Assembly: GCF_003019035.1 (NCBI RefSeq)
Contig: NZ_CP027447.1
Source: Escherichia coli
GTDB lineage: Bacteria > Pseudomonadota > Gammaproteobacteria > Enterobacterales > Enterobacteriaceae
DNA length: 64,000 bases
Reading direction: 5' to 3' (one strand)
The notes below the pieces were generated by a model. It was given only the letters and a program-made list of their open reading frames with translations, did not search any database and was not told the origin of the DNA. Shown piece after piece: positions 27,356 to 34,313 of this stretch (positions are counted from its first letter, which is position 1; each line of letters starts with the position of its first letter). The position numbers were made by a program, and so were the translations under genes.

Positions 27356-29125
27356 TCAGTTGCCGTTAACAATGCTGATAACGCTGCTGCGGGCCGGCGT
27401 GGTCAGCGTGGCCATGACTTCATCCAGTGCGGCTTCCGGTACGCCGTCCGGGTACTGTGCCGTTAACTGGCGGTAATGTTCCGGCGTCCAGGTAAGGCCG
27501 TCGGCGCTGAACTTATCGCGCAGGGCTTTCGCGGCCTCCACATGAGTCATGGGACGTTGTTCAGTGCGCGGTCTGCGTACATCAGAGGCCTGACCGCGCT
27601 TCGGTATACAGGCCGGAAGTGTGGCGTCATCAATATGTTTATACGGGTCAAGCCGCCCGCCGAACGGCAGCGCCTTCGCCTTGCGTGCGGCAGCTGCATC
27701 TGCGGCGTTGTCTGTACCGGTGACCAGCGCTTCGGTTTCTTTTGCCGCCGTCTGTGCCGGTGTTTCCGGCAGGGCTTTGTAACTTTCGCCAAATACCGCC
27801 GCGCCTTCAGCAAAGCCAAACTCGTTCTTTCTGACCTCTTCGACCAGGAAGAACGTCTCGTGGCCGTCCTCACCGGTCAGAACCACCTGTGCCACATCGC
27901 TGCGCCATGGGTTACGGGTAATCATCAGTTTTTCACCAACCAGTACGCCCGGTACCGTTGATACGTCAAATTCAGTGCCCCGGAACGAGACACGAAGTTT
28001 TGGCGTGACTTTGCGGAGTTCTGGTGTCGTCACAGCCAGTTCACGGCATACCTCAACGGAAGGCGCTTTTTTCAGCTGCTCAGCAGTAATCTTCAGCCAG
28101 ATATCCGTGCGGGTTTTACCGTGGCGGCTGTGAACAGCTGTTGCGTTAAAGTGGCTACGCCATTTCGCGGCCAGCGCGTTGAGTTCTTCCAGACTGTGAA
28201 CCGGCCGGAACTTCAGACCCGGCTCCAGCTTGCGTTCGATAATGTCACGCGCCTTTTCCACCTGTCCGGTGGCGCGGGCGTTATGCGGCTTGTGCGCTAT
28301 CAGGTCGATGCCCAGTGAGCGGCACATGTTTTTCGTCATACCCGCGGTGTTTGCCGAGCCGGGGTCGAGATAGAGTATTTTCGGCACGCCGTGCAGCACG
28401 TCTGCGCCGCCACGCTCCTGCATGGCGTTGATAAGCACAGAACACAGGTTCTCACCGGATTCCGCACCCGTCACATACTCAACGTAAATCCAGCCGCTGG
28501 CATGGTCGGTAATCTCGTAACTCCACACGCGGTCACTGGCGATACGGGCAAGGTTAGCGGGCTTGTTCTTGTAGAACTTCGCGCTGTCCATCACCTGCAG
28601 CCCTTTGTGTCCATTGCTCAGGTAGTAAAGCGTGCAGAGAGAGGCATCAATCTGCCAGACATGATTGGGATGCAGACTGGCCACTTCGGTATGCGGCGCA
28701 GGGGCATCCAGTTGTTCCGGGTGCAGGCCATAGTTACGCAGGGCACGGCTGATAGCATCTTCGGACAACGGGAAAAACTCACCGGTGGTTTCATCTGTTC
28801 TGCCTGCGGAGATAAAGCCGTTAGCCCGCAGGGTTTCCACTGCATCTGCGATGGAATAGAGACGCTTACCGTTCTTGCGGGTGGCCTCACGTAGTGTGGC
28901 AGATATCAGCGCGGCTTCGTCGCGGGTCAGGGCGCTGCGCCCGGCATCGGCGCGTTTTTTGCGTTTATCAGTCACAGAGACCTCCTTCAGCCTGCGCAGC
29001 AGAGTGGCGCGGGACATGCCAAGTTCAGCACAGGCGGCGTCATATATTGCACCACGTTTACCATGCCCCGCGTCACGTGCCGCGCGGGCGACATAAACCA
29101 GTCGTTCAGTCAGGGCAGCATTCAT
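27356..29125 (-). CDS. DDE transposase (Mu A-like)
   Basis: 589 aa; N-terminal HTH-like region, integrase-core motifs (HVWQIDAS, YLDPGSANT). Confidence 0.8.
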   Translation of the reverse strand: MNAALTERLVYVARAARDAGHGKRGAIYDAACAELGMSRATLLRRLKEVSVTDKRKKRADAGRSALTRDEAALISATLREATRKNGKRLYSIADAVETLRANGFISAGRTDETTGEFFPLSEDAISRALRNYGLHPEQLDAPAPHTEVASLHPNHVWQIDASLCTLYYLSNGHKGLQVMDSAKFYKNKPANLARIASDRVWSYEITDHASGWIYVEYVTGAESGENLCSVLINAMQERGGADVLHGVPKILYLDPGSANTAGMTKNMCRSLGIDLIAHKPHNARATGQVEKARDIIERKLEPGLKFRPVHSLEELNALAAKWRSHFNATAVHSRHGKTRTDIWLKITAEQLKKAPSVEVCRELAVTTPELRKVTPKLRVSFRGTEFDVSTVPGVLVGEKLMITRNPWRSDVAQVVLTGEDGHETFFLVEEVRKNEFGFAEGAAVFGESYKALPETPAQTAAKETEALVTGTDNAADAAAARKAKALPFGGRLDPYKHIDDATLPACIPKRGQASDVRRPRTEQRPMTHVEAAKALRDKFSADGLTWTPEHYRQLTAQYPDGVPEAALDEVMATLTTPARSSVISIVNGN

Positions 29126-29128
29126 TGG

Positions 29129-30043
29129 TTATGCCTCCAGCCCGTTAATCTGTGGCGTCGGCTCAGTCAGCCATGAAGGCGCGACATCGCCTGTTGGCTC
29201 GTCCGGCAGGTCAAATGTGGAGCGCAGGCTACGCGCTGTGCTTTCCAGTTGACAGACCAGGCCTGCCATGAAGTCTCTGGGGGTATCAATCATGTTTTCA
29301 GCACAATATGCGCACAGCGTCTCAAAAGCGCTGGACAGTCGAACGGCGATAGCAGATTCCGCCTCAACCGCTAATGCTGTCACTTCCGCCCGCAGCTTCT
29401 TAACCTCTTCATCAGGCTCAGGCGGCTGAATACGGGATTTCTTCTCCAGTTTTGTGGAAAGCGAGTCGATTTTTTCGTTTTTGTCGGCCAGCACGCGCTG
29501 TTGTGCTGCGTTGGTTTCGCGGGCTTCGCGCAGGGCCTGACGCAATTCACGTACTGACATGCGATCAACGTCGTCAAGCGTCAGGCCGGCAACTGTGCCG
29601 CCGTCGGCCAATTCATCAAGTTCTTCATTATCCAGAACCATCAGGTCGTACAGTTTGGCTTTCCCCAAAACGCTCAACGTTGAGCGTTTTGTTGGCTCAT
29701 CACCTTCTCCCAAAAACTTCATACTGGCTTGCATCATGCGGCGAGCAACTTGTGGTGCAAGTCCGAGTTCATTTTCTAAAATGTTTGTAAAATCACCGTG
29801 TGGCTCATTTTCTTTTAAGATGATCAGCCGTTTACCCGCTTCCAGCATAGATTCAGCACTCTGCGCCATATAAAAACGTGCTTCGTGAACAATGCGATCA
29901 CGTTCATAAGGCAGTCCATCACCAAACTGCTGCATAATTTCCATGCGATGCTGTGTCATAGCGTTCAAATTGACATTGATGTTATCTGACAGCGGAACCT
30001 CAACATTCAGTTCAGTGTTAACGGGTGATTTGGTGCGTCCCAT
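29129..30043 (-). CDS. Hypothetical conserved early protein (304 aa, coiled-coil C-terminal half)
   Basis: ORF between the Ner-like genes and the transposase. Confidence 0.5.
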   Translation of the reverse strand: MGRTKSPVNTELNVEVPLSDNINVNLNAMTQHRMEIMQQFGDGLPYERDRIVHEARFYMAQSAESMLEAGKRLIILKENEPHGDFTNILENELGLAPQVARRMMQASMKFLGEGDEPTKRSTLSVLGKAKLYDLMVLDNEELDELADGGTVAGLTLDDVDRMSVRELRQALREARETNAAQQRVLADKNEKIDSLSTKLEKKSRIQPPEPDEEVKKLRAEVTALAVEAESAIAVRLSSAFETLCAYCAENMIDTPRDFMAGLVCQLESTARSLRSTFDLPDEPTGDVAPSWLTEPTPQINGLEA

Positions 30044-30053
30044 TGATTACTCC

Positions 30054-30425
30054 TTACAAACGACTACCTGAAATAACTCGTTGGTTGATTTCGTTAATAC
30101 GATCCTGTGCACGCGCCATCTCGTGACTGTGAGCCATGGCGATCTGTAGTAACTGGATTCCCGGTGCGAAACGTCCGTTCTCTAATTTCATGGCCAGTCC
30201 CTCTTCAATAAGGGTATTAAGTGCTCGATTGATATTCGCCGGGGACTCCCCCAGGGCTGATGCCAGTTCACCGTTAGAAACACCGTTCAGAGCATGACCG
30301 CGTAGAGCTTTGAGTACACGTAGGATGCGGCTCCCGGAACTGGAAATATTTACTTTACTCATGTCACATTTCCATTTTTGCAATATGTGATAACCTGTTG
30401 CATATGTGGAAAATTTATGCCGCAT
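30054..30425 (-). CDS. Putative winged-helix DNA-binding protein
   Basis: SRILRVLKALRGHALNGVSNGELASALGESPANINRALNTLIEEGL resembles MarR/IclR-type wHTH; start uncertain (alternative Met at 30362). Confidence 0.45.
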   Translation of the reverse strand: MRHKFSTYATGYHILQKWKCDMSKVNISSSGSRILRVLKALRGHALNGVSNGELASALGESPANINRALNTLIEEGLAMKLENGRFAPGIQLLQIAMAHSHEMARAQDRINEINQRVISGSRL

Positions 30426-30603
30426 TTGACGTGGGTTTTAATCCCAGTTTTACGGCAATTTCATGGGCTTTGCCGTAACGAGCTTTGGTCTGTCCATTGA
30501 GAACACGATAGACCTCATTGCGGCTGTAGCCGTGTTCTTCGGCCCAGCGGGTAAACGTGATACCACGCTGACGGAAGAGATTTTTAACTTGTTCGGAAGT
30601 CAT
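30415..30603 (-). CDS. Small HTH DNA-binding protein in the Ner position (first gene of the early operon)
   Basis: 62 aa with AGGAG RBS; divergent from the repressor gene. Confidence 0.55.
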   Translation of the reverse strand: MTSEQVKNLFRQRGITFTRWAEEHGYSRNEVYRVLNGQTKARYGKAHEIAVKLGLKPTSNAA

Positions 30604-30689
30604 TGTTGTCTCCTTTGTTGATGCAATGATGTTTGTTTTATATGTGATAGATTATGTGAACTATTGTTCTCATTGTCAATGAGGTTTAT
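30604..30689. promoter_or_regulatory. Divergent early/repressor promoter-operator region
   Basis: 86 bp AT-rich spacer between divergent starts; three direct copies of TATGTGA (30641, 30653, 30687). Confidence 0.55.
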
Positions 30690-31115
30690 GTGAATTTTGA
30701 TTCTCTTTGCGCGTCGCGGTTCAAAGCTGAGCGTTCGCGGTTATCACTCAAGCAGGCTGAAGTAGCAGCCCTTTGTGGCGTTTCAAGAGAAATGTGGGGG
30801 AAATATGAACGAGGGGTTGCTGTTCCCGGAGGTGAGTTACTTGCAGCCTTTGCAAGAATTGGGGCCAATGTACAGTTCATTCTTACCGGGGAGTCATCAG
30901 GTATAACTTTATCACGTGATGAAATGGAGTTACTGCAGCACTACCGGCAAGCACCGTTACAGGTCAAAGGTTCAGTTTTGTCGGCTTTGACTACTGGCTC
31001 CTCCAGAGAACGGGCGGAACAGGTTATTCATGGAGATGTTCTGGGGAATGTTATCAAAGGTAACGTAACCATAGGAACAGGTGGAATAATGAACAAAAAT
31101 ACCAAGAGAAGATGA
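30690..31115 (+). CDS. Prophage repressor (XRE-family HTH)
   Basis: GTG start with GAGG RBS; HTH LSLKQAEVAALCGVSREMWGKYERG; divergent from the transposition operon. Confidence 0.75.
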   Translation: MNFDSLCASRFKAERSRLSLKQAEVAALCGVSREMWGKYERGVAVPGGELLAAFARIGANVQFILTGESSGITLSRDEMELLQHYRQAPLQVKGSVLSALTTGSSRERAEQVIHGDVLGNVIKGNVTIGTGGIMNKNTKRR

Positions 31116-32098
31116 GTAAAGAGAAGCAAACAGTTAACGGGGATGTGGGTAACGTTGTCAGCGGTGATGTTACCATTCATAACTATTCTGCTGACATACT
31201 TCCTTCTGCCCAGCAACCAATTTCGTTGCTGCAAAAACGCGATTTACACAGATTGATGGATGAATTGGTTGATCTGGGGGAAAGTAAGCGCGAGCTATGG
31301 ATGACGATCCACACGAAACTTAATACCAAAACAGTTAATGAAATGACTGCGGCTGATTATCATGGTGCGGTTGAGATCCTTCAGAGATATGCACAACAGA
31401 TCCAGAATATGAAGGACTGTAATCTTCTGGTCAGCAAAATAATGGCGCTTACTGACCCTGGGTATCGTCTTGACCGTGACAGATACTGTCTGAAGCATTT
31501 CGGTACAACCCATCTTAAAGGCCTGGACAAAGAGCAGTTGCAGGCTGTGTTTGGTTATTTTGATGATCTGCTGAATATTCGTGATGAGAGTAAAACTCTA
31601 TCACCTCCATCGGAAAGCGGTGCAAAATCAGTCGCAACTGTACCAACCAGAAGCCGGAAGCCTCATGTAGTAGTGTTGGGGGGAGCGTTAGTTCTTGTAG
31701 CAATATTTTTCGTGGGAATGATTGTGTTCGCTGGTAAATGGGGAAATGCTAAAGCAGTAGCTTCTACTGAAACCAGCGTTTTTAACATTAAAACCAACGA
31801 CAAAATAATAGAAGATTCCATCCCCGCACTGCGCAGCATGTTTCCAGGATTAAATAAGTACTCAGATGATTTCCATTCGGTTTCAAGCTACAAGCAAAAA
31901 ACGGGCTGGCATACCCTTAAATTTACTGTATCAGCAAAGGCATCCGTCCCCGAAAATTATAGTGTTAAGGGCAAGGTTTGTTACATTAACATAAACCCTG
32001 ATGGTAGTTATGCTCGGGTTTTGACTGCTCCATGTCGTTCACTGCTACTTGATCAGCAAAGCACTCCTGACAGTAAGTACCGTTTTATTCTTAAATAG
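31112..32098 (+). CDS. Hypothetical single-pass membrane protein (moron), translationally coupled to the repressor
   Basis: ATGA overlap with the repressor stop; markedly AT-rich; one TM segment (VVVLGGALVLVAIFFVGMIVFAG) between N- and C-terminal domains. Confidence 0.6.
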   Translation: MSKEKQTVNGDVGNVVSGDVTIHNYSADILPSAQQPISLLQKRDLHRLMDELVDLGESKRELWMTIHTKLNTKTVNEMTAADYHGAVEILQRYAQQIQNMKDCNLLVSKIMALTDPGYRLDRDRYCLKHFGTTHLKGLDKEQLQAVFGYFDDLLNIRDESKTLSPPSESGAKSVATVPTRSRKPHVVVLGGALVLVAIFFVGMIVFAGKWGNAKAVASTETSVFNIKTNDKIIEDSIPALRSMFPGLNKYSDDFHSVSSYKQKTGWHTLKFTVSAKASVPENYSVKGKVCYININPDGSYARVLTAPCRSLLLDQQSTPDSKYRFILK

Positions 32099-32410
32099 AA
32101 AATAACAGCTGAATTACCATGGGAGCAGAAAAAAGACAAAGGCGATATCATGCTGCGTTCTAAAATTTTAATGTAAAAGGTGATGAACATGGCAGGGATT
32201 CAGGTTATCGCAGGAAGTTTTCCTAAAGGGTGGGCAAGCATGGGGTTCGGTACCATCGTGTTTGCCACCAATCCATGGAACGATGGGTAATGTCTGCATT
32301 TTCATAATCTGTAAGCCTTTTACAATTATTAAAAATATGGCAGGCTAGTCTGGTCTCGCGAGACTGACTGAACCTCGGTCGGCTCACAGTGCATTCCTGT
32401 GGGACGATGG

Positions 32411-32447
32411 CCAGCCCGGCTTTCGGGTGCCGGGCTGGTCGTTCTTT
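32411..32447 (+). terminator. Putative rho-independent terminator
   Basis: Perfect 10 bp stem ccagcccggc/gccgggctgg with 8 nt loop, followed by tcgttctttc. Confidence 0.5.
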
Positions 32448-32494
32448 CATGATGCGGCAGGGATAGTGGGATTTCTGTTAATGTGGTTTAGGGA

Positions 32495-32710
32495 TTATCC
32501 GGGGTGATTGTCTGCCTTTATCTGGTCCAGGGCATAAGTGATCCCTTCAGCAAAAACAGAAGTATCGAACTGCTTTTGTATTTCCTGAAAATGAACAGTG
32601 GCACGACAGATACTCAGTTCTCCGCGATGTAACCGGATAATATCTTCCAGAACATTGTTCACTGCTTCGGCACGGCGCTGATGTTCTGTTAACGTTAATC
32701 GGGGATTCAT
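32495..32710 (-). CDS. Hypothetical small protein (71 aa)
   Basis: Strong AGGAG RBS 7 nt before ATG. Confidence 0.5.
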   Translation of the reverse strand: MNPRLTLTEHQRRAEAVNNVLEDIIRLHRGELSICRATVHFQEIQKQFDTSVFAEGITYALDQIKADNHPG

Positions 32711-33113
32711 GATGCACTCCTTAAATGATGATTTTTATGTACTCACCGGCAAAATATTCTGCCGATTACTGAACACGCATCCGGCACCTCAGGTTTTGAT
32801 TTATTCTGGTTTTTTCGATATCCCGGACCAGGTTGATCACGACCAGAAAAAGTGCCGGTATTTTATTGATACGCTGATATGGCTTCGGGATAACAGCTAT
32901 ATTCGTTACTCTCAGTTGCTGGCTGTGGGAGCGGCTGATGTCGTCCTCACGGAAAAAACGCTCTGTCTGCTCAATGCCATGCCGACCTTTCTGCAGCCCC
33001 GGCCCGTACCATTTAAAGAGTTGCTTCTGGATGCAGTAAAAACCGGCGAAAATGCAGTCATCGCTGAATGCGTATCCCGGATTATGCGTTACGTGTTTAA
33101 TGAACGTAAGTGA
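32709..33113 (+). CDS. Hypothetical protein (134 aa), uncertain
   Basis: Only long ORF in the 380 bp gap; weak RBS; start overlaps the divergent 71 aa gene and 3' end overlaps the convergent NTPase gene. Confidence 0.3.
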   Translation: MMHSLNDDFYVLTGKIFCRLLNTHPAPQVLIYSGFFDIPDQVDHDQKKCRYFIDTLIWLRDNSYIRYSQLLAVGAADVVLTEKTLCLLNAMPTFLQPRPVPFKELLLDAVKTGENAVIAECVSRIMRYVFNERK

Positions 33114-33832
33114 GGTTTATCTGCTGTCTGCATAATCCCGATAGCCAGTGCGAGGGGAAGTAATTCCGGGGAAACTCTTTCAAACAGCGATGCCCATTCT
33201 CCTCTCGCCATCACTCTGTCCAGCCCGCCCCCCAGCTGCATTTCAGCAATCTTCCTGATTTCCCGGAACAACGCCGCTTTGATCTCTTCATGCTCAGCTT
33301 TATTTTCCGGTGTCAGAATGTATTCGTCGAAGAACCGGGGAGGCTGGTTAACGGGGATTGTGTTTACCGGGATGTGTTCCTGTTTCCCGTACTTCGGGGA
33401 CGAACAACATTCTGTTGGCTGACCGGTGAGTTTACGTAACTCCTTCATGAGCAGCTCCTGATCGTAAACTGTCATCAGTGCCGCAATGGTGGCATGCAGT
33501 GCATCGGGCAGTATCCAGGGTTGCCGGCCCGTGGGGCATATAACATCCAGTAGCTCATTCGTCCGACAGATACGCTCCTCTCCGTATGACAACAGGCCCT
33601 GTCCCGTGTATTCCTCCAGCCTGATCACTGTGCCAGCCCGTGGCTTCTGCCAGGTCGTCAGATCATCGCCACTCATACGGCGCTCATTCTCCACGTCAGC
33701 AGCATCGACAATGACGCTGTTTCCGAGTTCCTGTTTCACCACTTCCTCTATCCGCGCCAGTACGTAACTTTTACCGCTGCCCACAGGACCGGACACGGTG
33801 ACAGTGATGACCGGATTCAGTGTATGTGTCAT
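33089..33832 (-). CDS. P-loop NTPase/kinase-like protein (247 aa)
   Basis: N-terminal Walker A VSGPVGSGKSY and probable Walker B VIVDAAD; strong AGGAG RBS. Confidence 0.55.
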   Translation of the reverse strand: MTHTLNPVITVTVSGPVGSGKSYVLARIEEVVKQELGNSVIVDAADVENERRMSGDDLTTWQKPRAGTVIRLEEYTGQGLLSYGEERICRTNELLDVICPTGRQPWILPDALHATIAALMTVYDQELLMKELRKLTGQPTECCSSPKYGKQEHIPVNTIPVNQPPRFFDEYILTPENKAEHEEIKAALFREIRKIAEMQLGGGLDRVMARGEWASLFERVSPELLPLALAIGIMQTADKPHLRSLNT

Positions 33833-33962
33833 GTTGCATTCTCCTCTGTGAATAATTCATCGTTTATCCTGCACATCCCGTATCCCCGGCTCTCTTAACG
33901 CGCTTTAAAATCCTTCGCGCCCTGTATTTGTGATGCTGTCTCCACCAGACAAGGAGACACAC

Positions 33963-34313
33963 ATGAAAAACCTGAAAAAATTCATTCCCCCTGTTAAAAA
34001 ACCTCGCCTCAGCGGCTGGCTGCTGACCTCAGTGCTGTTGCTGGGCACCATCGCTCTGGTCTCGCCACAGCAGCTGCCTGTTGTGATCTACAAGCTGGCA
34101 CTCATCACGCTGGCAGCAGTGCTGGGTTACTGGCTTGACCGTTCACTCTTCCCCAAAGCCCGTCCCGGTCAGTACCTGAAACATGAAGACAGGCTGATGG
34201 CTGAAGGGCGTTTCCCTGTGCAGACCGGCCTTCACCTTGTATTTTCTGCTGCGTTAATCCGCCGTGCACTGATTGTTGCAGCGGTCTGTCTGGCTGTGGC
34301 AACAGGACTGTGA
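33963..34313 (+). CDS. Putative holin-like membrane protein
   Basis: AAGGAGA RBS; hydrophobic segments; immediately upstream of the endolysin. Confidence 0.4.
   Translation: MKNLKKFIPPVKKPRLSGWLLTSVLLLGTIALVSPQQLPVVIYKLALITLAAVLGYWLDRSLFPKARPGQYLKHEDRLMAEGRFPVQTGLHLVFSAALIRRALIVAAVCLAVATGL

Follow-up and report, generated by a model that had tools for sequence, protein, structure and literature searches.

Covarying terminal peptides may couple prophage repressors to membrane-anchored proteins encoded immediately downstream

Repressors that do not cleave themselves can be controlled by their location or by a binding partner. Mlc is held at the membrane by PtsG, the Qtip protein of VP882 aggregates cI, and the extreme C-terminal tail of the Mu repressor serves as a regulatory handle for turnover by ClpXP. 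To our knowledge, none of these systems uses a matching peptide on both partners, and in none of them is a membrane protein that descends from the repressor's C-terminal domain co-transcribed with the repressor and translationally coupled to it. The locus analyzed here, which would likewise place a repressor without self-cleavage under the control of location or a binding partner, belongs to a BcepMu-like transposable prophage of Escherichia coli and lies in a stretch of 64,000 nucleotides (the window; assembly GCF_003019035.1, contig NZ_CP027447.1). It consists of the prophage repressor gene and the gene that overlaps its end, whose product, the partner, is a membrane protein with a Flk_N domain. 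The repressor ends with a short peptide, the tail tag, that resembles the N-terminal peptide of the partner, the N-peptide. Sequence comparisons give a little more than an even chance that such co-evolving tag pairs couple repressors to membrane-anchored partners in phages of Enterobacterales, Orbaceae, Pseudomonas, Burkholderia and Ralstonia.

Matching motifs in the products of adjacent genes are known from amyloid signalling pairs (Dyrka et al., bioRxiv 10.1101/2020.01.06.895854) and from Bab/Agp with BASS11, a bacterial amyloid signalling motif (BASS), in a prophage island of E. coli (bioRxiv 10.1101/2024.11.07.622273). The locus resembles the amyloid pairs (fungal HET-S/NWD2, the bacterial Bell/NLR pairs of BASS1-10, and Bab/Agp) in its short motifs, which are rich in G, N, Q, V and I and poor in P and L, in the adjacent and collinear genes, in the many motif families and fused architectures, and in having one membrane partner; like Bab/Agp, it is prophage-borne. 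As in systems with amyloid signalling motifs (ASM/BASS), the same motif is found at the C-terminus and the N-terminus of adjacent collinear gene products, in the window and in more than 20 lineages. In length and composition the agreement is incomplete: the aligned length is only about 12-21 residues in most pairs, and lysine, at 5.3%, is not depleted. The locus differs in that its motifs are carried by a DNA-binding repressor and a tail-anchored Flk_N protein rather than by a sensor of the NLR type and a Bell/HeLo executioner; searches with Pfam, PHROG, NCBIfam and PADLOC identified the first protein by an XRE helix-turn-helix (HTH) and the second by Flk_N, not as a sensor and a cell-death effector. 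Moreover, the membrane protein carries the tag at its N-terminus, a mirrored arrangement, the tags are shorter, and the setting is the control of lysogeny in unicellular Proteobacteria.

An earlier note on this DNA claimed that a GDV-GNV-VTI motif recurs in the repressor tail and in the N-terminus of the downstream protein, and both peptides lie where it placed them. It located the end of the repressor correctly but let the protein stop at TGG; nine further residues follow, seven of which are the basic NKNTKRR, and the C-terminus reads ...RAEQVIHGDVLGNVIKGNVTIGTGGIMNKNTKRR. The partner begins with MSKEKQTVNGDVGNVVSGDVTIHNYS. Local alignment pairs residues 108-128 of the repressor with residues 3-22 of the partner, with 11 identities in 20 residue pairs and one gap of a single residue. 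The BLOSUM62 score of 55 compares with 29.1 ± 4.4 for shuffled repressor sequences and is reached by one of 2000 shuffles. The similarity of the two segments, for which the note had proposed a protein alignment, is therefore above chance, and taken singly it is modestly significant. Among 37 non-redundant pairs of repressors and downstream proteins, the window-type pair ranks first in both directions. A pentapeptide-repeat beta-helix was considered for the tags because GDVLG-NVIKG-NVTIG is pentad-like, but no Pfam Pentapeptide match was obtained at E <= 1 and other motif classes have no period of five residues.

The likeness is kept at the junctions of related prophages, where the note had suggested looking for it. 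In more than 20 sequence-distinct BcepMu-like and P2-like lineages the motif is wholly different, and the tail still resembles the N-terminus of its own partner; it resembles the immediately downstream protein and not the N-termini of other lineages. Repressor tails are of the window type (HGDVLGNVIKGNVTIG...NKNTKRK), of a Dickeya/Pectobacterium type (FNGDISGQFAGNQIINNG...NKKNK), of a Citrobacter/Klebsiella/Enterobacter type (VSGQGNRVAGRDYNENKK) or of many further classes, in each of which G, N, Q, V or I is abundant and the end is mostly a basic cluster. Tail and N-peptide are HGDVLGNVIKGNVTI and NGDVGNVVSGDVTI in class A, FNGDISGQFAGNQIIN and FNGTAQGQFSSRDIIN in class B (tabulated as QVFHGNVSGQFAGNQIVN and QEFNGTASGQFSARDIIN), and VSGQGNRVAGRDYNE and NSTGEQNRISGRDFNE in class C (tabulated as VNVSGNGNRVAGRDYNEKK and VNSSGDQNRTAGRDFTENR). 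Class C consists of P2/186-like prophages, in which genes for a BRCT protein and the integrase come next. Beyond classes A-C there are about 20 further lineages, including BcepMu (gp17/gp18: QEQVFHGSVGQAVKVEGN and KQEFNKPVGQAIQAGEAN), Pseudomonas phage Ps59 (gp17/gp18: ITVTGNGNRTAGQVYHE and IEVTGSNNKVAGRDFIE) and Ralstonia phage RSA1 (ORF35/ORF33: IRVGGNVGQYVEGNQTG and IVVKGDAGQVVAGDATH). Matching ends are also seen in Orbaceae (IIHGNNHGLVVDA and HICGDNLGNVVNA) and in L102 (IGKVGQIVQADNIETV and IGKVGQLIQTENIGTI) and L105 (AAGGVQVGYVGGSV and GSGGVQVGKVDGDV; L and P numbers are our handles). In RSA1 (L124, NC_009382 25651-30010) the transposase gene ORF34, of the insertion sequence type, interrupts the operon between ORF35 and ORF33, and the tag-matched pair is kept.

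In all 45 loci with Flk_N partners that were found in IMG/VR, a repressor with a matching tail is encoded directly upstream, the gap ranging from -4 to +35 nt. For the 37 non-redundant pairs, the sum of the cognate scores exceeded 20,000 of 20,000 permutations, and the cognate partner was on top in 14 rows, where one would be expected. The same holds for 18 representatives chosen solely for a G-rich tail: their cognate sum exceeded 100,000 of 100,000 permutations, with the cognate best in 12 of the 18. Repressor homologues without a G-rich tail serve as an internal negative control, as their downstream genes are unrelated and unmatched. A variant class was also seen (L078/L079, L110 and L112; P0123, P0142, P0167, P0169, P0182 and P0216), in which the partner has a helix of about 25-30 residues (M..DERLAKLAELLK..) ahead of the G-rich motif, while the repressor ends in another type of C-terminal domain and lacks a G-rich tail; coupling in this class, if any, must differ in mode.

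The match is maintained at the level of the proteins. Across the 18 pairs the aligned tag segments are 41-69% identical in nucleotide sequence (60% in the window), and the same codon is used at 77 of the 177 identical residues, against 75.5 expected from the genes' own codon usage. Since codon sharing is at the chance level, no recent duplication or gene conversion lies behind the match, and selection on the peptides keeps the tags alike. The local duplication that the earlier note invoked thus fails as a recent DNA event; an ancient duplication at a point of gene fission is the likely origin. Recoding, by ribosome hopping between matching codons or by a frameshift fusion, was rejected on the chance-level codon identity and because both open reading frames (ORFs) have their own conserved start and stop. 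The note's other suggestion, a shared interaction or oligomerization element, gains good, if indirect, support from the class-by-class covariation in the more than 20 lineages and from the one-gene fusions described below.

The repressor genes comprise at least four HTH sequence types, one type being combined with tails of class A, B or C and another with tails of class B or C. The tail class equals the N-peptide class in 48 of 48 typed loci, with two misses of the regular expressions that are sequence variants. As judged from these sequences, the immunity region has a mosaic structure, in which recombination has joined different HTH parts to the C-terminal half. Because the tail class follows the N-peptide class while the HTH is exchanged, the C-terminal half of the repressor and the downstream gene evolve as a unit. 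Independent assortment of HTH type and tail class was noted in the repressors of L003, L022, L027, L040, P0043 and others.

The partner matches PHROG 10002 over its full length, and Pfam PF27202 (Flk_N, precomputed) is assigned to its homologues and to the class B to E partners. The window partner itself belongs to the Flk_N family, with significant matches to the NCBIfam Flk model (E 3.5e-12, residues 19-147) and to Flk of E. coli K-12 (BLASTP E 1e-5). Flk resides in the cytoplasm, is anchored by its C-terminus and regulates the switch in flagellar secretion (PMC13344023). Only the Flk_N domain is common to the partner and Flk (Fluke/RflH) of Salmonella and E. coli, the type III secretion-switch regulator; chromosomal Flk proteins differ in their Pro/Gly-rich leader (MIQPISGPPPGQ...), their two or three tandem Flk_N units and the lack of an adjacent repressor. 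Orthology of the partner to flagellar Flk was rejected on the score of 46 bits against an equivalog cut-off of 353, the single Flk_N unit, the different leader and the prophage context. A flagellar role was likewise dismissed, as leader, architecture and context are unlike those of Flk and nothing ties the partner to flagella.

The N-peptide is the best-conserved stretch of the partner family and nearly unchanged in homologues that are 44-82% identical overall. AlphaFold2 (AF2), given the family alignment, predicts residues 1-29 to be disordered, with a predicted local distance difference test (pLDDT) value of about 44, followed by an all-helical domain (31-161, pLDDT about 92), a transmembrane (TM) helix (192-206) and an alpha/beta domain (231-328, pLDDT about 93). 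The alpha/beta domain, presumably periplasmic, occurs only in class A partners and in L066. Klebsiella phage KP12 and Escherichia phage Phi06_2974 B encode, at another place in their genomes, a hypothetical protein with which it shares 24% identity, and no solved structure like it was found. Shorter homologues stop just past the TM helix and are therefore tail-anchored like Flk. One or two TM helices are predicted in 17 of 20 partner proteins whatever their cytoplasmic domain, which in distant phages is a Zn-ribbon, a mini Flk_N-like segment or of no known family; the tag and the membrane anchor are therefore the constant features. PADLOC gave no defence-system match for the partner.

The repressor is composed of an XRE/CI-type HTH, a helical C-terminal half, the G-rich tail and a basic end. 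It matches PHROG families of transcriptional regulators and repressors, and its gene occupies the immunity position, divergent from the Ner-like gene and the early operon with the transposase and MuB-like genes, as is characteristic of CI/Cro-type (XRE) proteins with HTH_3/HTH_31 domains. The BcepMu homologue gp17 is treated as the lysogenic repressor (PMC2628397), and the Ps59 homologue is annotated as a repressor. RefSeq places the start of the window gene at ATG 30654, 36 nt upstream of that used here, which would give 153 residues. This ATG directly precedes an in-frame TGA in the window (30654-30692), so the start here must be GTG 30690, whose product (MNFDSL...) agrees with the N-terminus of distant homologues. 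Pfam found no Peptidase_S24 in the window repressor, which is thus not of the self-cleaving LexA/lambda-CI type; PF00717 occurs in only one distant homologue, P0083.

The predicted fold of the repressor resembles the DNA-binding domains of P22 c2 and 434 (Foldseek against the PDB). Repressor and partner were also modelled with AF2 as a fusion in reversed order ([partner 1-164]-(GGGGS)6-[repressor], 26-row paired alignment), in which both folded domains are well predicted and the C-terminal half of the repressor forms two helices (construct residues 270-296). Foldseek searches of the PDB with this model matched the HTH only, and other fold searches gave weak helical bundles at best. The tail tag, which hardly varies among class A homologues and gives way to other motif classes in other lineages, has a pLDDT of about 33 and is without secondary structure. 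Most tail-bearing repressors have a K/R-rich end after the tag, such as NKKKK, NENKK, GKGKKRK or SGRKRK.

The origin of the two proteins is indicated by one-gene repressors. A hidden Markov model of Flk_N, run against 1.84 billion representative proteins, matched 220 clusters only. They are chromosomal Flk-type and phage-type proteins, the leaders of the latter being diverse G-rich tags. In a few matches the domain lies beyond residue 120, behind an XRE HTH and a G/N/Q/V-rich stretch in the middle, and is recognized by Pfam as a C-terminal ORF6C domain. This HTH-motif-ORF6C family contains 40 clusters of about 265 residues. One member, P0260, seen on 405 contigs, is 100% identical to the protein that Pseudomonas phage Gregale encodes at its left end and that is annotated as a CI-like repressor, and one fused member lies opposite a Ner-like gene, in the repressor position. 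In hhalign comparisons, residues 1-73 of the fused family align with residues 1-71 of the window-type repressor (probability 98.7%, E 1.5e-16) and residues 88-263 with residues 5-153 of the partner (probability 97.5%, E 8.4e-12), the latter alignment beginning at the tag (SISGGNFAGFVG..TVHMI with TVNGDVGNVVSGDVTIH). From these two collinear matches it follows that the window genes correspond to a one-gene repressor that has been split, each of the two parts bearing a copy of the junction motif.

The one-gene repressors (Gregale, P0260) thus resemble the window repressor in their HTH part and the partner in their motif and C-terminal domain, and they share the genomic position of a transposable-phage repressor. 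They differ in being single polypeptides with one motif copy and no membrane anchor, whereas the window encodes two polypeptides with a motif on each, the first with an added helical region and basic end, the second with an added TM helix and periplasmic domain. That the window itself encodes a one-gene HTH-ORF6C repressor was rejected: there are two ORFs with a stop codon between them and an ATGA overlap, both halves being homologous to the fused form. A likeness of Flk_N to the C-terminal ORF6C domain of phage regulators (Rha-ORF6C and HTH-ORF6C) was also observed in P0241, P0231 and P0234 (alignment A6). By sequence, Flk_N appears to be homologous to ORF6C, which would link flagellar Flk to the C-terminal domain of phage repressors.

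We somewhat favour an interpretation in which the repressor and the downstream protein are the halves of a split repressor, of which one is membrane-anchored and which a private, self-matching tag would keep joined. In the one-gene form an XRE-type HTH is followed by the beta-prone G/N/Q/V-rich motif and a helical C-terminal domain of the ORF6C/Flk_N type. In the split form the first gene supplies the HTH, a short helical region, the motif and the basic end, and the second, translationally coupled to it, the motif, the Flk_N domain and the membrane anchor. The two motif copies would associate by collinear, in-register pairing of beta-strands, a geometry suggested by selection for likeness and not for complementarity. 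Tag pairing would reconnect the DNA-binding half with its own membrane-anchored C-terminal half and with that of no other phage, and the same element would self-pair within oligomers of the one-gene repressors. Divergence between lineages would make the link private to each phage, much like operator specificity, and translational coupling would set the nascent tail beside the emerging N-peptide, favouring assembly. Anchoring of the C-terminal half may permit control of repressor activity by location. The partner would then set the amount of active repressor, whether as a co-repressor scaffold required for full repression or by drawing repressor away as a sink, and the periplasmic domain of the window partner could supply an input.

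Several points weigh against the split-repressor interpretation. The locus L051 has a repressor with a G-rich tail and a DUF4236 partner in which the match is absent, and P0186 in L119 has an N-peptide with no HTH gene upstream. In the AF2 fusion, residues 1-31 and 297-335 have pLDDT values of about 30-35 and form no strands, and neither peptide is docked onto a folded domain; the model thus does not predict the candidate geometry in which one tail binds one N-peptide or Flk_N domain. This negative is itself weak, as the two proteins were modelled as one chain in place of a multimer and from a shallow alignment, and the predicted disorder speaks weakly against a simple, strongly encoded 1:1 complex. 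The designation of the upstream gene as a repressor rests on position and homology, and whether the partner acts as co-repressor or anti-repressor is a guess. Finally, tail and N-peptide are encoded about 50 nt apart, and such tight linkage adds to their co-inheritance; linkage cannot explain the pairwise likeness of wholly different motifs.

The sharpest alternative is an amyloid-type signalling switch, in which the tags would be a bacterial amyloid signalling motif pair and one protein would template the tag of the other into a cross-beta assembly. The membrane partner might thereby convert and inactivate the repressor, resulting in induction, or the repressor might convert the membrane protein into an oligomeric, membrane-damaging form, resulting in abortive infection or lysis. 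The analogy draws on the signature of the known pairs, namely motifs at the C-terminus and N-terminus encoded by collinear, (near-)overlapping genes together with all-in-one fusions, on a fitting composition (G 15.5%, V 11%, N 9.4%, Q 7.9%, I 7.9%, L 1.5%, P 0.8%), on an RHIM-like core (VQVG/IQVG/VQIG) in some tags (L105, L114, P0085), and on the disorder of both peptides in the monomer model, as expected for such motifs. We nevertheless consider it unlikely, since the tags, at about 15-21 residues, fall short of the 25 or so that are typical of BASS motifs, an NLR/STAND sensor and a Bell/HeLo-type executioner are both missing from the pair, and a constitutively co-expressed, coupled pair would need a trigger to remain unassembled. 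A prion-like lysogeny switch, in which a membrane-anchored sensor, equipped in the window with a periplasmic domain, templates the repressor tag into a self-propagating cross-beta form or, conversely, a membrane effector is armed, seems rather improbable. It would remove active repressor and commit the prophage to induction, and the private tags would prevent cross-talk between co-resident prophages.

Tags that do not bind each other could instead compete for the same site on a third component, such as a pocket on Flk_N or on the helical half of the repressor, a protease or an adaptor, so that one tag is a decoy. Such mimicry is doubtful: no candidate receptor covaries with the tag, the helical half of the repressor is near-identical in classes A, B and C although their tags are unrelated, partners without Flk_N, such as Zn-ribbon and two-TM proteins, have matched tags as well, diversification by lineage would not be expected from a host protease, and AF2 docked neither peptide on Flk_N. 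It is still less probable that each tag serves its own homo-oligomerization and that the likeness is a relic of fission, preserved by similar constraints with no hetero-association. The single motif between the HTH and the C-terminal domain of the one-gene repressors could indeed self-pair, and each copy is strongly conserved inside its class; yet with synonymous sites saturated and the classes turning over, the copies should have drifted, whereas the cognate is best in most lineages. That short, compositionally biased peptides align easily, and that shuffling gives the window pair, taken by itself, a p of only about 5e-4, would leave room for a chance likeness of low-complexity G/V/N-rich segments or for a recent local duplication devoid of function. 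Both are refuted by the recurrence of the match with different sequences in the more than 20 lineages and by the permutation tests, the duplication also by the nucleotide identity and codon sharing given above, and we regard them as barely credible.

The coordinates of the locus are compiled in Table 1. The minus-strand operon of the prophage also contains an IclR-type HTH gene, a DUF3102 gene and a MuB-like AAA+ gene. Its transposase shares 98% identity with the one of Escherichia phage PhiKM, 93% with that of Klebsiella phage KP12 and 69% with those of Burkholderia phages phiE255 and BcepMu, and 126 of 5,426 complete E. coli genomes carry the same 1.6 kb at a coverage of at least 80%. Five copies of a TATGTGA core (30383-30392, 30401-30407, 30640-30649, 30652-30660 and 30686-30694), among them ATATGTGATA twice and TTATGTGAA twice, lie between or beside the repressor gene and the Ner-like gene, and two of them are overlapped by a near-consensus minus-strand promoter (TTGACA-17-CATAAT, 30679..30651). 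They are likely operators, candidate sites at which the HTH protein may repress the lytic promoters.

A scan with Rfam of 29500-34000 gave no structured RNA match at the gene junction. On the plus strand at 32411-32449, about 315 nt beyond the partner stop, a T-rich run comes after a GC-rich hairpin with a perfect stem of 10 bp (CCAGCCCGGC, loop TTTCGGGT, GCCGGGCTGG); this hairpin was missed by a consensus scan and probably terminates the repressor operon. The DNA that separates the immunity region from the holin/SLT lysis genes contains two small ORFs without family matches (32495-33113) and, on the minus strand, an ORF of 247 residues (33089-33832) with an N-terminal P-loop and a weak AAA_30 match, whose shorter counterpart in strain A24 is annotated as 'KAP family NTPase'. 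PADLOC gave no match for these ORFs, which are possibly a moron or defence cargo.

Table 1. Features of the repressor-partner locus and its surroundings (positions in the window)
Feature	Position	Strand	Basis
Prophage repressor gene, 141 residues, GTG start	30690..31115	+	ORF list; Pfam HTH_31/HTH_3; PHROG repressor families
HTH DNA-binding domain, residues 10-56	30717..30857	+	Pfam HTH_31; AF2 pLDDT about 90; Foldseek P22 c2
Conserved helical C-terminal half, LSRDEMELLQHYRQAPLQVKGSVLSALTTG	30906..30998	+	Kept in all tail-bearing homologues
Repressor tail tag, residues 111-129, QVIHGDVLGNVIKGNVTIG	31020..31076	+	Alignment to partner N-peptide
Basic C-terminal end, NKNTKRR	31092..31112	+	K/R-rich ends common among homologues
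ATGA overlap of repressor stop and partner start	31112..31115	+	Sequence; translational coupling
Partner gene, 328 residues (N-peptide tag, Flk_N, one TM helix, presumed periplasmic domain)	31112..32098	+	
Partner N-peptide tag, residues 5-25, KQTVNGDVGNVVSGDVTIHNY	31124..31186	+	AF2 pLDDT 31-44
Flk_N (ORF6C-like) all-helical cytoplasmic domain, residues 31-161	31202..31594	+	AF2 helices, pLDDT about 90
TM helix, residues 187-206	31670..31729	+	Hydropathy 2.92 (187-205); AF2 helix 192-206
Extra C-terminal alpha/beta domain, residues 231-328, conserved Cys pair	31802..32095	+	AF2
Divergent control region with TATGTGA repeats (candidate operators) and strong minus-strand promoter	30640..30694		Sequence
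Ner-like HTH gene	30415-30603	minus	
DDE transposase gene	27356-29125	minus	

Literature searches on Flk and prophages, on amyloid and repressors, and on BcepMu gp17/gp18 turned up no account of the pairing; terminal-motif matching in adjacent genes is already known, and its use in a split repressor is, as far as we found, undescribed. The exit from lysogeny is poorly understood for repressors without a LexA-like cleavage domain, among them those of BcepMu-like and many P2-like phages. For these phages the comparisons reveal a conserved two-gene module of a repressor and a membrane-anchored protein derived from its C-terminal domain, tied to each other by the lineage-specific likeness of their tags. 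The module is present in cultured, tractable phages (BcepMu, Ps59 and relatives, RSA1) and in E. coli prophages of more than 100 complete genomes. If the proposed coupling is true, it would add a membrane-linked control point to prophage immunity for a repressor without a LexA-type cleavage domain, and it would extend to transcription control the principle of matching terminal motifs, so far drawn from NLR-type cell-death systems. It would also provide natural sets of orthogonal peptide tags and give the enigmatic Flk_N domain a second biological context.

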